Source: Torpedo marmorata
Taxonomy: Eukaryota
Length of the DNA: 64,000 nt
Assembly (NCBI GenBank): GCA_977017645.1
Contig: OZ360223.1
Location: 47,554,001-47,618,000 of the forward strand
Reading direction: 5' to 3'
The notes under the pieces are model-generated. The model was not told the origin of the DNA. It made no database searches and saw only the letters and a program-made list of their open reading frames with translations. The first letter of the stretch is position 1; every line of letters starts with the position of its first letter. Below, one piece after another: positions 3,414-35,070 of the stretch. Both the position numbers and the translations under genes were made by a program.

Positions 3414-6400
3414 AAATTACTAGCAAAGGCAGAAAGAGGCAGAGTCACAGGTTGCTTGTAATCCCTCCACTTCCCCCTCTAAGAATTCAGCCCTAGCAAA
3501 ATTCTTGTTTTTGTTTTAGACTGTACAAAAGCTGCAGTGACCTTAAGTCACCAGAATTTATGTTCTGAATGAGAAACACAACTACTTCAGGTGCATTAAG
3601 CTGTGGCACTGCATCTGGCTCGATGCATTATGTTTGCAGCACCCCTGGAGTGAGTTGCGGCTTCCTGTAACATGTAAAATATGAGTGTGAACTCAAGGTT
3701 CGTGGCAGGGAGCAGGGAGGCTGAAGCAGGAGGTCAGGCAGCCTTTCAAATCTGGCTGAAGAACAAGGTTGCAGATGTTCCTGTGTAAGTGTAATGACAC
3801 CAGCTCCCCGAGAACACAGGAACCCAGTGCTTCCTTCTCCTCATTTTCACGAATGAATGCCATAATCAGTAAGCTGCTTGCAGATTTATTCAAATAGAGT
3901 TTTATTTTACATATTCAGAGATCAAAATGGCTTTAATGCAAGCTATGATGTTCAGATAAACAGTCTTCACTTTCAACTGAAGGTCCCGTATTAAAGGAGG
4001 ATACATGTTAGATTTTATTTTACTTCATTTTATTACCTTAGAATGTCAGTGCAAGAAAAAATATTTCAATATAAAATTACTTTCATTCAATTGCTCCATT
4101 CTTTCCTGAATTCATGCCTCGGACATGAAGAATGTCTTCCGAGGCAAGACATTTCCTTTATTGGATGACGATACAGAAACCAGTTGATTATGTTTTTGAG
4201 CTGTTAATAATTCAGTTTTCTATAAACCAGGCTTGACCACATTGTCTGGCAAGCGATTCAAATTGCTCTGGTATATTTACTGCTCTATTTGTGCTGTGTT
4301 CATCCCAGACACTTTGATTCCAGAGTGCTTTTGGAGAACTGAACTGTACATAAAAGACATAAAGTTCCCACCTTAATTTTGACACAACATCATGGAAATC
4401 CTGCCCAGTACTCAACCCCCACCTCCGGTGAAATCTGGTTGGATAGATTGGTCAGGATCATTGTGTTAAGTTGTTATATTGTATTTCCCTTTTAAGTGAG
4501 AACTTAGCTCCAGGTAATTTAGTCATGTGATCTGAGTGCCATGGTGCTGCTTGGATTGCCAAGAGTGTTTCCTGCTTCCAGAATGAGCCTTTCTGTATTG
4601 TTTCCTTACACTGAGTAAACACTCTCTGCTTATCAAAGGTGTTATTAATACCAGTTTGACTAGAATGGAAGATGAAATGGTGCAGGAGAAGCGTAGCTGT
4701 ATATTTAACACAATTCTGTGGAATAAATTCTCCACTTTGAATTTTATAGAGTGTACACTGTGGCATATAATAAATTAATGGAATTTACAACATAAAAACA
4801 TCCTATCTAGCTTCATTGTGCAATGCTGGCATTTATACGCCACATGAGCCTCCTTTCACCCTGTTCATTTCTCTCTGTAGTTATATTCTACAGTTCCTTT
4901 CTACCTCTGCCTGGCTTCCTCTTAAAAATATCCAAGATTTTCTTCTCATTACACTGTATATCAAGTTCCATAATTTAGAGTCTGGGTCGTTTTCCTGAAT
5001 TCCCTGCTGGATGTGTTAGTGATTATATATTCAGGACTCCCCACATCATCTTTGTCCACCTTGCTCTCTGTGATCCAAGAGATCTCTATCAGGTCACCAT
5101 CAGCTTTCTTTTTTTTATTTTGGTGAACAAAATGCTATTACAATCCTTCCCCAGATAATGACCCATTAAGTGGATGGTTTTAAATACATTATAAACTATG
5201 ATGTTATGAAAAACAAAATATGTCAACCATAAATGACTGCTCTTGGAGGTAGCAAGCTGACAGTTACTGTATCACTGGATGCAGATGCTGTGCTCAACAT
5301 CCCTGATCAATACGTTTAATGTCCCTTATAGTCATTTGAAACTCTGTTCATGATGTACACATGGAACTGTTAACATCCTACTTTTATTTTTTAATCTTTC
5401 TTTTACTTTTCACAATGCGAGAACTTCTCCATTTATGACTAAAAGCACACACTATTTTGCCTTCTCGAAGCCAAGGAACTTACTCGTCCTTTGCTCACTA
5501 GCTCAATAGTACAACCAAAATTCAGAATTAATCACATTGAGAACTGTGGATACAAGTTTTATGTTACTCCAAGAAACTACTGTGCTTTCCTCTCCACCAT
5601 TTATAGTTCTGACATAAATAAACGCTTCATGCCAAAACGTGCCAAATTCTCAAATGAAATCTCAAAGCTAAATTTCTACAACAAGGAATCACTTACATCC
5701 AACATGTGGCTCCCTTTATAGATAAAAAAAAAGTATGTAATACTAAGAATGGTGAGTGATTCAAAACTATATAGATTATAATGAAGGAAATTTCAGACCT
5801 TCTATTACCCAAACAAGCATTGAAAATAATTGGAGAAACTGAACAGTACCAGCAACTGAACTGGTTGCTGGAAATGATTCCTGTGACAGAATGTGCAGGC
5901 CCAAAGCCCAGTAAAGATGAAATTAGGCCATATGTAGACCCATCAATTGGGTTGACCACCTGTTCAAAATGCTAAAGTTCAAAGTAGAATAGCGCTGTGA
6001 TTTAACAGTGGTTCTAGCTTGTTTTGACTCCACCTAATTGAACATATTAACAGCTGTGGGTGCACGAGTTAATACCCTGGGGACTGAGTTATTACCCAGC
6101 AGCAAGCTCTGTATTCATTTTATAAATATTTTTTTTTTCGGATTCTACTGGCAACAATGTTTAAAGCTGATATTGTGGGAGCAGGCATTTAGTTAGCCTC
6201 AGGTTCCTGGTGGTGAGGGGGTGCTACTGCAAACCAGGCAGAAGGTCACTGCCTGATACCAATTAATTGCCTGGCACTGCAGCATACAGAAAATCAGGGC
6301 ACTTTCTAAAACCTGCTGTTGTCTCCTACCCAACCTATGCTCCCTCCAGCTTCCCGCTCCCAACAGTGGAATTCTGTCAGACAGTTAATCAGGCTGAGAT

Positions 6401-7859
6401 GGAAACAGGATTTTAAACACCGGAACTGTCCTTTCCAAATAGGAATGGACATCCACACTATTTCTTCCAGCACTATATCCTAAAGGGTCTCAGAGCAGAC
6501 AATAAGAATGTCTTTAGAAGCTGTCCATTCCTTGGGCTCTTTTCTCAGAAGAAAAATCCTCCAGGCACTTCTCCAATCCAGACCAATCCCAATCTACTCA
6601 CGCACTCCTAACAGCAAGAAACTTTTGAAGATGGCGACAATTGTTGGTGGTGTCACTTTTAGGATTCCCCTCTCCCTTCTGCCATCATTTCCCTGCTCCT
6701 TCTGTGATCCTGTTATCTCCTCCACTTCTTCCCCCCACCCCACCACTTGCCCCTGAACCAGGGGCCCAGTGGAGGCAAATGTCCATCAGAGCACAGAGGC
6801 TTGTGAGACAGAATTAATTAAATACTACAAACTAAACTTGTGTGAGCTAAATGAGCCAAATTTTGGCTGTTTCAGTCCCCTCCAACAACAATAAGAAGAC
6901 TGCAGAAATACTTCTGGTGAACAATCTGGCTTCTCTTTGGAACCCAGATAACATTAATGCTGTGGTTAGTTTTGCTGATACAAGGTGAATTAAATTGTGA
7001 GGTTCGATGAATTAATGTTCATTTCATAAAAATGAATGGTAAGCTTGATCTGAATTTTGCTAACCTGAAACCAGTTGACAGCATGCAATTACTCCAATGC
7101 TCTTGCATTATTCCAATATATATCCTATAACAAGGTTCCATGTTTAATGTCTGCTTTTGTGTGAAGTTGGGTGATCTTATTGGTGGGAATGATAGCAGTT
7201 GGCCTATTTACCATTTCCCCTTTCCTGTCTAATAATTGCTGGATTGTGAACCTGGAGACTAGTCGGTCAGGAACAGATTCCATTGTGCAGCTTTTAAGTT
7301 GAAATACCACTAGTATACAATTTTGTGAGTTTGTAATGAAAAAAAAAGCACTCTGATATTTAAAAGGAACAACTTCTCAACTGAAATAGGGGGTTAGGAA
7401 ATTGAAATGGTCCTTTGCAGTACTTCTTTTGCAACAACATGCTAGATTTCACAGCCCCTCCCCAGGCTGTTGATTCATTATCTGAATCCTTTTGCTTTTT
7501 TCAGCAAAACCACTTGGGAGCGCATGGTGAACACCGTGCATGGTGAAATCAAACATCTTTCAATTTTGTAAAATCATGTTTCAAATATTGATCATGTTTT
7601 TAAGCATTGGATGGATGTCAATTACTTATCTGCAAAATGAAATAGAAGTGGAATACTTCAGTCATGTTAATTTAAACATTGAGTCCAATTACAATTTATT
7701 AGCGTGCACAATGTAGAATGGAGAACTGTTCCTGTGCACCAGTTTATCCACAAACTACATCTGGAGACACAAAATCCACTGTGTGTTATTTTGTGGGTTT
7801 TGCAAGTTGCAATCAGAATTACATTCCTAAGTGGTATTTGAACTCAGAAGATGCCAAGA

Positions 7860-32595: not shown

Positions 32596-33768
32596 CTAGA
32601 GGGCAGTTTGGACTTGCAGACTTTTGCGTAGTGTCCCTCCTTCTCGCAGCTAGCGCAGACCACATCTTTCGCCGGGCAGCGTTTCCGGGGGTGCTTATCC
32701 AGCCCACAGAAGTAGCACTTCTGCTGATCGTGGATCATAGTAGCCGTGGTTGAGTCGCTTTCGGAATGTGGTGGTGTTCCACAGGCTTGTGGCCCTCCCG
32801 CATCCCAAGACGGCAGCGCCTTTGGCAACCACGATGCGGCCGCGCTATCGGCAGAGTACGCGTCCATATTTTGGAGGGCCACTTCTAGCGTGCCCGTTAG
32901 GTCCACAGCCCTCTGCAAGTCGAGCTCACCTTGCTCCAACAGTCTCTGCCTTATGTAGTTTGATCGGCAACGTAGGCGTCTCTTATGAGGTCCTCTGTGT
33001 ACGTCGCGGCCGTAACGGCCTTGCAGCTACAGGCCCGTAGGTACTCGTCGCTCGATTCCCCAAGTCGCTGTTTTCGAGTAGCCAGGAGATGTCTGGCATA
33101 GACTTCATTTACCTTCTTCAGGTACTGGCCTCTCAGCGTGTCACAATAACCTTTATTCAGGGGTCTGTGGGAGGAGCCACAGGTACAGCCAGTAAGGGGC
33201 GTGTCCAGATGACCATAAACATATATACAGGTATTTACAGTTGTCGGCAGAATCACAAACGGCAATGAGGAAGTACAGGAGTGAGAGAGATCAGCTCGTT
33301 GAATGGTGTAACAGCAACAACCTTGCGCTCAACGTCAGCAAAACCAAGGAAATGATTGTGGACTTCAGGAGGAAGTCAGGAGAACACAACCCAGTCCTCA
33401 TCGAGGGCTCAGTAGTGGAGAGGGTCAATAACTTCAAATTCCTGGGTGTCAACATCTCCGAGGATCTGTCCTGGAGCCTCCACGTTGATGCAATCACAAA
33501 GAAGGCTCACCAGTGGCTATACTTTGTGAGGTGTTTGAGGAGATTCACCGAAGACTCTCGTAAACTTCTACAGGTGTACCATGGAGAGCATTTTGGCTGA
33601 TTGCATCACTGCCTGGTATGGAGATGCCAACTCTCAGGAAAAGAATAAACTCCAGAGGGTTGTTAACTCGGCCTGTGACATCACAGGCACCAGACTTCAC
33701 TCCATCGAGGACATCTACATGAGGCGGTGTCTTAAAAAACCAGCCTCTGTCCTCAAAGACCCCCACCA

Positions 33769-34765
33769 GTTTGGGGTTAGTTGGGTTAGGCTTGTGGTTA
33801 GGGTTAGGGTTAGGTTGTCAATATGCGGACAGCAGGATGATTATCCCTCTTGTGTTCACTGGCCTCCCCTCTCAGAGATTCTGTGTCACTATAAACTGCC
33901 ACTTTTGGTTGATCCATGCTTTCATTATCCTGTACCTGTTTCTAGCTTTTTTGGTGGGATCAGTGCCATGCTTCTTCTCCGGTACTTATTGTGCCTTTTG
34001 GTATGTCCTGGGTTGAGACCATTCTCTGTCTAGTGGGTGACCTTATATTTATCCCTTAGGATTAGGGTTCGGTGTGGGATTTGGGATGGAGTTAGGTGTG
34101 AGATTAGGGTTAGGTTTATTTGGGGGGTTATGGTTTGGGTTAGGCTTGGGGTAGGGGGGTTGAGGTTGGGGTTATTTGGGGAGTTCAGATTGGGGTTAGT
34201 TGGGGGGTTAGGGTTAGGTTCTGGGTTGTGTTTGGGCTATGGTTTGTGATTGGGGTTAGGTTTAGTTGGGTGCTTCAGGTTAGGGTTAGTTGGGGGGTTC
34301 AGGGTTGGGTTAGTTGGGGATTTAGGCTTAGTGTTTGGGTTGGGGCTGCTGTAGGTGTTGGGGTTGGGGTAAGGCTTGAGTTTGGGGTTAGTTGGGGAGT
34401 TCTGGTTGGGGTTAGTTGGGGGGTTAGGGTTAGGTATTGGGTTGGGGTATGGGTTGGAATTGAGGTTACCACCGAATGTCTCAGATGGTGTCATCTCCTT
34501 GTTCACCCCTGGTGAGGGGGGTCTCCTTGTTCACCCCTGGTGAGGGGGTCTGGAATAACTTCACTCAAGTTAGTGTCGATCACTACAACTTGTCTTCACT
34601 AGTTTCACGGCACTATTTAGATTCTGGTTATTTCTATGTTGCTTCTCGTTTCGCTGTGGCTGGAAGTCGCCACTCCTTTCGCTTCATCAGGGGTCAAAGA
34701 GGTTGAAAAGCCCACGAGTCTGTGTTTTTAAGGGCTATCCATTCTCTCCTCCCTTTGGAGGGGCT
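33769..34765 (-). mobile_element. Unclassified ~1 kb insertion with degenerate (TTAGGG)-like repeats and a hammerhead fold
   Basis: Interrupts Rex1 at cacca|gccat with loss of 5 bp (cccag) and no TSD; degenerate ggttag/ggttgg arrays at 33769-33815 and ~34055-34468. Confidence 0.8.
34645..34718 (-). ncRNA. Type III hammerhead ribozyme-like fold (cleavage-site nucleotide abnormal)
   Basis: Minus strand: CUCGU-ggg(cuuu)ucaa-ccucu-uugaccc-CUGAUGA-a-gc..guggc-gacuucca-gccac..gc-GAAAC-GAG. All three stems pair by eye; the triplet reads GUG or lacks H17. Confidence 0.7.
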
Positions 34766-35070
34766 GCCATGCCCTCTTCACTCTGCTACCATCGGGAAAA
34801 AAGTACAGGAGCCTAAAGACGAGCACTCAACGGCACAAGGATGGCTTCTTCCCCGCTGCCATCAGATTCCTGAATAATCAATGAACCAAAGACACTGCCT
34901 TACTTTTTGTGCACTATTATTTATATATTTTTATAGTAATGTCATAAGATGGTTATAATGTTTGCACTGTGATGCTGCCGCAAAACACTGAATTTCATGA
35001 CTTGTTCATGACAATAAATTCTGATTCTGATTATATTTTTGAGTCTCATCACTGTTTTTTTTCAACAATA

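Follow-up and report, generated by a model that had tools for sequence, protein, structure and literature searches.

The window, a 64,000-nucleotide stretch of the Torpedo marmorata genome, contains at positions 33769–34765 an insert within a LINE fragment that we take to be Rex1. The boundaries were defined by comparing the window with itself. The left part of the host fragment (33237–33768, plus strand) is 90–93% identical to window copies at 10.9–11.3 kb and 26.1–26.6 kb, and ALKBH8_N is its sole Pfam match; the right part occupies 34766–35032 (plus strand), with 5 bp missing at the site. Three empty copies of the LINE in the same window confirm that insertion was accompanied by a 5-bp loss and no target-site duplication, as had been proposed from the sequence. 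Where the insert meets the right LINE segment there is a 7-bp microhomology with the inserted element. On the minus strand, the host LINE is flanked at 29.4–33.3 kb and 35.1–37.6 kb by a decayed gag-pol element and a 738-codon reverse transcriptase (RT) frame, presumably of LTR type and L1-like, respectively.

The insert reads on the minus strand, and its parts are numbered here by the 6,699-bp unit described below. The piece at 34548–34765, from the element's 'tail' region (unit nt 680–~897), is 90% identical to nt 680–895 of the master unit and 95% identical to another copy, L075. The hairpin that the sequence-only reading had placed at the terminus is present at 34763–34746, but it corresponds to unit nt ~682–699 and is internal in the full element. 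Likewise, the tandem duplication described as ~27 bp is found at 34494–34548 but has a period of 28 bp (TRF, 2.0 copies, 100% identity); it corresponds to unit nt ~6040–6067 and lies at the junction of two templates. Beyond it are an 85-codon ATG frame, a degenerate CCCTAA-like tract belonging to the element's 3' non-coding region (34057–34476, from tandem-repeat and unit comparison), a conserved 3' block (33809–34056) that contains a palindrome of the GGATAATTATCC type and ends at unit nt 6699 (...GACAACCTAAC), and a 40-nt telomere-like tail (33769–33808) that is missing from the empty target; tract, block and second telomere-like tract were all present as earlier described. Matches of 18, 14 and 17 nt in the tract of the element itself suffice to tile the 40-nt tail; this is suggestive only, as such words match easily.

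Both unique parts of the insert are repeated in the genome. First-look searches returned 489 and 1,034 candidates, and the 40 scored of each, with the window itself excluded, had 90–95% and 94–98% identity. The parts are therefore not single-copy, and because both recur genome-wide at high identity, the features of the insert are not attributable to chance. A query across the 897-to-6040 junction was covered whole only by the window among 40 scored matches. By sequence comparison, the insert is a two-piece, non-autonomous, truncated copy made of unit nt 680–~897, nt ~6040–6699 and the 40-nt tail. The order of hammerhead followed by ATG, which had been taken as the layout of an element, is produced instead by this apparent template-jump junction, which omits ~5.1 kb.

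What the tail-region piece carries of a predicted type I hammerhead is its 5' product (34548–34695, minus strand): the 5' arm of stem I, a CUGAUGA core, stem II, GAAA and a long stem III insert. The core boxes of the fold noticed earlier are there (CTGATGA at 34690–34684 and GAAA at 34652–34649, minus strand), but that fold cannot close because the 3' arm of stem I has been cut off and stem III is mutated, and this copy is predicted to be inactive. The piece stops within 2 nt of the predicted cleavage site at nt 897, where other copies are also broken (see below), and only the 5' product is retained. An Rfam scan of window positions 30–38 kb found no RNA family at E≤1. A type III hammerhead was rejected since its pairing needs window-specific changes and it offers no valid cleavage triplet. 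Between 34548 and 34665, four of the five CTAG words deviate from close relatives, among ~10 changes; one of the deviant words is shared with a dispersed piece, L301.

An autonomous parent unit and its relatives

Matches of the hammerhead part lie in periodic arrays. Extending the matches in search of an RT or endonuclease, as had been suggested, recovered an intact 6,699-bp unit that forms one array period (L071, on G000:C1672). Nt 1–897 constitute the tail, with the hammerhead motif at 750–902. ORF1 is intact and 545 aa long from its ATG; ORF2 (740 codons) is likewise intact, lies in the −1 frame and overlaps ORF1 by 25 nt. A T TTA AAC slippery heptamer (TTTAAAC) is located just ahead of the ORF1 stop, and no strong hairpin was predicted directly 3' of it. 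The 3' region of 1.8 kb consists of three related repeats followed by the CCCTAA-like tract and the conserved end block. Within ORF2, Pfam detects RVT_1 at aa 290–422 (E 4.8e-6, below the curated cut-off) and, C-terminal to the RT, GIY-YIG at aa 648–731 (E 4.7e-8, above the curated cut-off). A DKG motif (KPADKG) precedes the RT core, the RT–endonuclease linker at aa 610 contains CX4CX2C (CGNKQCGAC), which fits CX2-5CxxC, and the endonuclease has the CCHH motif (VYAIKCKQCHILYIGET, RLNGH, SRHF) with intact catalytic motifs. A comparison of ORF2 with solved structures gave no match. The C-terminal domain of ORF1 is of SGNH type: it is 42% identical over 173 aa to P0004, which matches Lipase_GDSL_2 at E 6e-6 (ORF1 itself reaches only E 0.13), and the SGNH residues are visible (GDS, G, N, DxxH). 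The insert thus derives from a ribozyme-bearing, telomere-associated Penelope-like retroelement, one of the origins considered at the outset. Two other suggested origins were rejected: a retrozyme, as the parent is autonomous with its own RT and GIY-YIG, and a tyrosine-recombinase retroelement, as only two ORFs of at least 200 aa are present in the unit and neither is a recombinase.

ORF2 is found in full in arrays on C45, C54, C1672, C1807, C2127 and C4220, and comparison of two copies over aa 1–565 gave a dN/dS of 0.24. The element is also present in contig sets X1 and X2 at mostly 90–99% identity, of which X1 may be the source sample; a search of sequencing runs listed no RNA holder of the element. 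A 4.8–5.4-kb derivative (L063, 3106–7943, on G000:C44; arrays on C2, C42 and C1807) has an intact ORF1 98% identical to that of the master, while its ORF2 is a decayed 5' stub (90%, with indels). Some arrays consist mainly of this ORF1-only derivative, a relationship reminiscent of HeT-A and TART; dN/dS between the ORF1 of the derivative and that of the master is 0.67 on 28 changes, an uninformative value. Older copies (L076–L079, on C76, C123 and C580) have large expansions of a 33-bp minisatellite in ORF1 at unit nt ~1545–1580.

The full-unit hammerhead is predicted to be of type I with a long stem III, which encloses ~100 nt. Stem I closes at nt 898–902, which places the predicted cut after GUC 897. 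When nt 746–910 were folded without constraints, stem I paired as predicted and stem III gained four of its five pairs. Pair probabilities of the stems were ~0.3–0.6 in this 165-nt context and 0–0.07 with sequence to nt 1000, and no covariation was seen among 10 copies, which are too similar to one another. Three rearranged copies are broken exactly after nt 897, their partners being nt 4751 (C54), ~4000 (C80) and 2079 (C45). Five dispersed pieces cross nt 897 uncut, running from nt ~740–756 to a donor-like nt 1021, which points to incomplete cleavage. The start at nt ~740–756 is common to these five pieces and one array copy, pointing to a transcription start near nt 750. After nt 1021 the pieces (L301, L302, L303, L308 and L309) continue into unrelated repeat sequence, and they have the appearance of chimeric transcripts, started at the element promoter and spliced, that were retrocopied; L309 is ambiguous. 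A ribozyme at the nt 6699 end was also considered and rejected, as no canonical core was found there by inspection or folding.

The ATG at 34494 is present and opens the 85-codon frame (34237–34494, minus strand; MTPSETFGG...PN repeats), but this frame probably encodes no protein. The Pro-Asn repeats, previously read as one, belong to the 3' non-coding region; from copy to copy the frame is anywhere from 3 to 200 codons long, and it has no match in Pfam. Variation at codon third positions was indeed found (9 of 13 single variants), but the same pattern occurs in non-coding telomere tracts, in five of nine of which the T of CCTAAC is the commonest variant position. The predicted frame-specific bias did not emerge from the substitutions, with 9 synonymous versus 19 non-synonymous distinct changes (p=0.19), and the position of the ATG reads AGG in paralogous repeats. 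The frame could instead be a real third ORF, expressed from RNA spliced from the donor at nt 1021 to an acceptor-like CCCCCTCACCAG followed by G upstream of the ATG. We retain this explanation because of the acceptor-like site nearby, 14 nt ahead of the ATG; five retrocopies stop exactly at the donor, most copies of the last repeat retain the ATG, and several have a 59–60-codon frame. It is nevertheless very unlikely, since none of nine non-GT junction matches continues into the acceptor, and the variable frame length, the p value for synonymous excess and the variant pattern shared with non-coding tracts also argue against it.

Relatives were sought in metagenomes. A scan with a single protein found nothing, and a scan with an alignment found 78 loci, which formed 56 clusters. 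An overlapping ORF1 in −1 relation is present in 38 of the 40 clusters that have a long RT frame and upstream sequence, 27 of the 38 contain an in-frame TTTAAAC, and minimal type I hammerheads occur upstream of ORF1. Downstream of the RT in 44 clusters, CCTAAC is found 112 times, versus 7 for its complement and 19.7±4.3 in 100 shuffles, and the six CCCTAA rotations rank above all other permutations; 22 of these 44 clusters have same-strand telomere-like repeats there, on short contigs in which the chromosomal site is not visible. A quick tree, in which no named Neptune or Nematis references were included, places the element among these relatives and the catfish protein P0110. A well-supported sister group (L193–L226) mostly lacks the endonuclease and keeps ORF1, TTTAAAC and the hammerhead; several of its contigs have overlapping ends, suggesting tandem arrays. 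In L170–L186, as judged from the inspected sequences L170, L171, L174, L178, L182 and L186, the domain order is different, with the cysteine linker and GIY-YIG preceding the last RT segment (R.KNL motif). A self-overlapping relative contig (L163, 1–55 and end) breaks at ...CCTAACC, ~430 nt upstream of the hammerhead, which is the layout of the Torpedo element.

Terminal arrays and dispersed copies

The host genome is 6.2 Gb in size and its telomere repeat is TTAGGG. Polar arrays of the element, interleaved with (CCCTAA)n, are located at five chromosome ends and on several unplaced scaffolds. Those at contig starts extend to ~92 kb (C44) and ~13 kb (C42), and those at contig ends occupy ~190 kb (C2), ~74 kb (C45) and ~30 kb (C54); arrays were read as samples, not each in full. 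On C44, the first ~570 bp are telomere repeats, after which truncated copies and repeats alternate. On C54 and C42, the copy lying deepest in the array adjoins perfect repeats, beyond which come degenerate proximal variants, and the variant at C54 is also that of element-free ends. A survey of 5–10 kb at each of the 74 ends of 37 large contigs found arrays at 5, telomere repeats without the element at 2, and neither tract nor element at 67. At the start of C43 and the end of C56 there is a telomere tract, with the element absent within 25 kb.

The exact 3' end at nt 6699 (...AACCTAAC) is joined to telomere repeats at 76 junctions, compared with 0 in the control. Of the 43 exact junctions on chromosome-scale contigs, 39 are no more than 200 kb from an end, all with the polarity of the telomere, which bears on the subtelomeric enrichment for which a test had been suggested. 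In the fetched array loci, every 3' block (144 of 144) has the orientation of the CCCTAA strand, and perfect telomere repeats directly cap 18 different sites of 5' truncation; both counts include overlapping loci, counted repeatedly, and secondarily amplified units. Amplification in periodic units of 8.7 kb, 4.8 kb and 0.3–0.7 kb inflates the array counts. The intact copies found at 99–100% identity are within arrays, along which age follows no monotonic gradient.

Dispersed 3' fragments number about a thousand. Their 3' ends were scored at 26 of the 30 best loci (L031, L050, L056 and L058 lacked the motif), representing 26 distinct sites with a duplicate locus removed. Twenty-four end no more than ~10 nt from nt 6699, and 15 of these have telomere-like tails; the other two continue into nt 1. 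The fixed 3' end at dispersed sites indicates that the end is set by the element and not only by the target, which parallels the internal initiation of the Anolis element (PMC11167929). The sequence at nt 6699, the inferred initiation site of reverse transcription, is complementary to the telomeric G strand. A flanking direct repeat of 8–12 bp, a candidate target-site duplication, was present in 3 of 28 dispersed rows, and none is present at the window insert. In four dispersed copies (L043, L046, L052 and L032), flanking pieces are inverted or the junction carries a telomere stub in inverted orientation.

In insects, TRAS and SART elements nick within telomere repeat tracts. The GIY-YIG endonuclease of the Torpedo element could similarly nick double-stranded (TTAGGG)n, such that the repeats at 5' ends would be pre-existing telomere and not new caps. 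The intact catalytic motifs, the telomere repeats on both sides of copies, the common 3' end at non-telomeric sites with its occasional direct repeats, and the age pattern along arrays are all consistent with such target-specific insertion. We regard it as unlikely, however, given that none of the 144 3' blocks has the opposite polarity and many copy-to-copy junctions have no intervening repeats. In addition, the endonuclease-less sister group retains ORF1, the slippery site and the hammerhead, indicating that this module can persist without an endonuclease.

Passive accumulation was also weighed. Here an ordinary dispersed Neptune element would have inserted close to a telomere on a few occasions, and recombination would have expanded it there into a satellite, with the window piece being a DNA patch from an array. 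Homogeneous periodic derivatives within arrays (4,838, 2,568 and ~300–700 bp), the abundance of dispersed 3' fragments and the microhomology at the window insert, with its lack of a target duplication, would fit such a history. It appears highly improbable because the 18 capped truncation points and the nucleotide-exact 3' junction would need repeated independent events; the confinement of the intact copies found to arrays, and the restriction of the whole 897-to-6040 junction to the window among the scored matches, also argue against it.

A model for propagation and comparison with known systems

With moderate confidence, we favour a model in which the insert is a truncated copy of an endonuclease-bearing Penelope-like element (PLE) that stacks among telomere repeats and whose RT starts internally, at a CCUAAC that pairs with G-strand ends. 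Transcription would begin near unit nt 740–756 and run through into the next unit, and some RNAs would be cut by the hammerhead after nt 897. A −1 frameshift at UUUAAAC would give ORF2 as part of an ORF1-RT-endonuclease fusion. A TTAGGG 3' end would then prime reverse transcription at nt 6699, ~900 nt inward from the RNA's 3' end. Upon drop-off of the RT, telomerase may cap the end; alternatively, the RT may jump to the 897 end of another RNA to generate full or partial tandems, with units later amplified by recombination. A single event at an internal break is the most likely origin of the window copy. A break in the LINE, or an endonuclease nick, is likely to have first gained ~40 nt of telomere-like sequence; copying would have proceeded from nt 6699 to ~6040, followed by a template jump, accompanied by a 28-bp stutter, to an RNA ending at ~897, and closure at nt 680 through the 7-bp microhomology with loss of 5 bp. 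A natural overhang and an endonuclease nick would look alike as primers, and terminal addition and endonuclease-led insertion predict similar flanks. Internal initiation at an AC-rich site has been demonstrated in vitro for the PLE of Anolis (PMC11167929). In that system homology with the target was not required for priming, and the in vitro reaction could do without ribozyme cleavage, which is a point against the proposed mechanism (PMC11167929).

Judged by its sequence features, the family is likely a PLE of Neptune type whose behaviour at chromosome ends resembles that of Athena, yet it is not Athena. The available part of PMC8557442 gives DKG, a CX2-5CxxC linker and a CCHH endonuclease as the Neptune/Nematis signature, and that of PMC5408684 (Rodriguez et al. 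2017) mentions esterases in Neptune-like elements of fish and molluscs. As far as these two sources extend, the Torpedo family shares with the Neptune clade an RT with C-terminal GIY-YIG, CX2-5CxxC, CCHH, DKG, a hammerhead in the repeat and tailed partial tandems. Neptune elements as described there are dispersed intrachromosomally with a 30–40-bp tail, whereas the Torpedo family forms polar terminal arrays with a ~900-nt tail, has a telomere-complementary initiation site, and has a stem III that encloses ~100 nt in place of the minimal form; minimal type I hammerheads in PLEs are described in the accessible text of PMC4209133. Craig et al. 2021 (PMC8557442), in the Figure 1 legend, mention a frameshifted ORF1 for some PLE type.

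In the portions available of PMC6431247, PMC3846280 and PMC8557442, Athena/Terminon and Coprina elements resemble the Torpedo family in their head-to-tail terminal chains, telomere-capped 5' truncations, coexistence with telomerase and GDSL esterase ORF. They lack an endonuclease, whereas that of the Torpedo family is intact, and they have a reverse-complement telomere stretch directly 3' of the hammerhead, whereas the Torpedo pairing site at nt 6699 lies 897 nt upstream of the predicted cut. The hosts reported in the same portions are rotifers, fungi, protists and plants, with no vertebrate among them. PAc/Poseidon of Anolis carolinensis (Frangieh et al. 2024, PMC11167929) is, like the Torpedo family, a vertebrate PLE with an endonuclease, tandems, AC-rich internal initiation and a hammerhead, but it has a single ORF, AT-rich targets, no telomere targeting and no primer-RNA homology. 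A GIY-YIG PLE of lake sturgeon beside integrated AciHV-3 (available text of PMC12031113) is a further fish PLE with an endonuclease and adjoining telomere-like repeats; it is degraded and was assumed there to be a random insertion, and array, polarity and mechanism are not analysed in that text. HeT-A and TART of Drosophila, TRAS and SART of insects and Tx1_Acar of Anolis, the vertebrate telomeric example in the accessible part of PMC10088271, are telomere-associated like the Torpedo family but are LINEs.

In having an ORF1-only derivative as the dominant component of some arrays, the family resembles HeT-A. Drosophila is without telomerase, whereas the Torpedo host keeps TERT exons. The exons encoding the RNA-binding domain of the host TERT are free of stops, and their best PDB matches we take to be vertebrate TERTs. 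MjPLE01 of the kuruma shrimp reportedly has a telomeric location. Its RT is also Neptune-like, but its endonuclease has been lost and its host is an invertebrate (PMC8557442, available part).

The literature, so far as PMC8557442 was available, divides PLEs into endonuclease-less terminal and endonuclease-bearing dispersed elements; the Torpedo family is both terminal and dispersed, bears an endonuclease and resides in a vertebrate that keeps TERT exons. The published work searched, to which subscription papers, Repbase and supplements were mostly outside scope, describes terminal chains only for endonuclease-less PLEs, with no analysed endonuclease-bearing vertebrate case. The family may already have a name, and the supplements of PMC8557442 or Repbase may list it or the frameshift. 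Its near-identical intact copies and nucleotide-exact TTAGGG-complementary site make recognition of chromosome ends by a telomerase-related RT testable, and the relation of internal initiation (PMC11167929) to telomerase templating can be tested on the same material. The family also provides candidate traces in the genome of hammerhead cleavage during the PLE cycle and a putative −1 frameshift signal that is clade-wide, and it cautions that a retroelement can deliver telomere-like tracts inside vertebrate chromosomes.

We put forward one broader reading tentatively, as possible though doubtful: that some telomeres of a vertebrate are built jointly by the host and a living retroelement related to telomerase. 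The internal CCUAAC would act like the telomerase alignment region, the CCCUAA-like tract of the element would be copied onto broken ends as a landing pad, an ORF1-only satellite partner would be supported in the manner of HeT-A and TART, and the endonuclease would be kept for dispersal. Were this so, the repeats in half of the relatives would mark a widespread, overlooked telomere-tropic PLE lineage intermediate between the terminal and dispersed types.

A 10-bp telomere-like satellite (CAGACCCTAA-type) is present at the ends of C53, C58, C60, C61, C62, C68, C69, C74, C75, C76, C78 and C80 and of many scaffolds of ~1.4 Mb. On C3043, it lies beyond a telomere tract that adjoins an array of the element.
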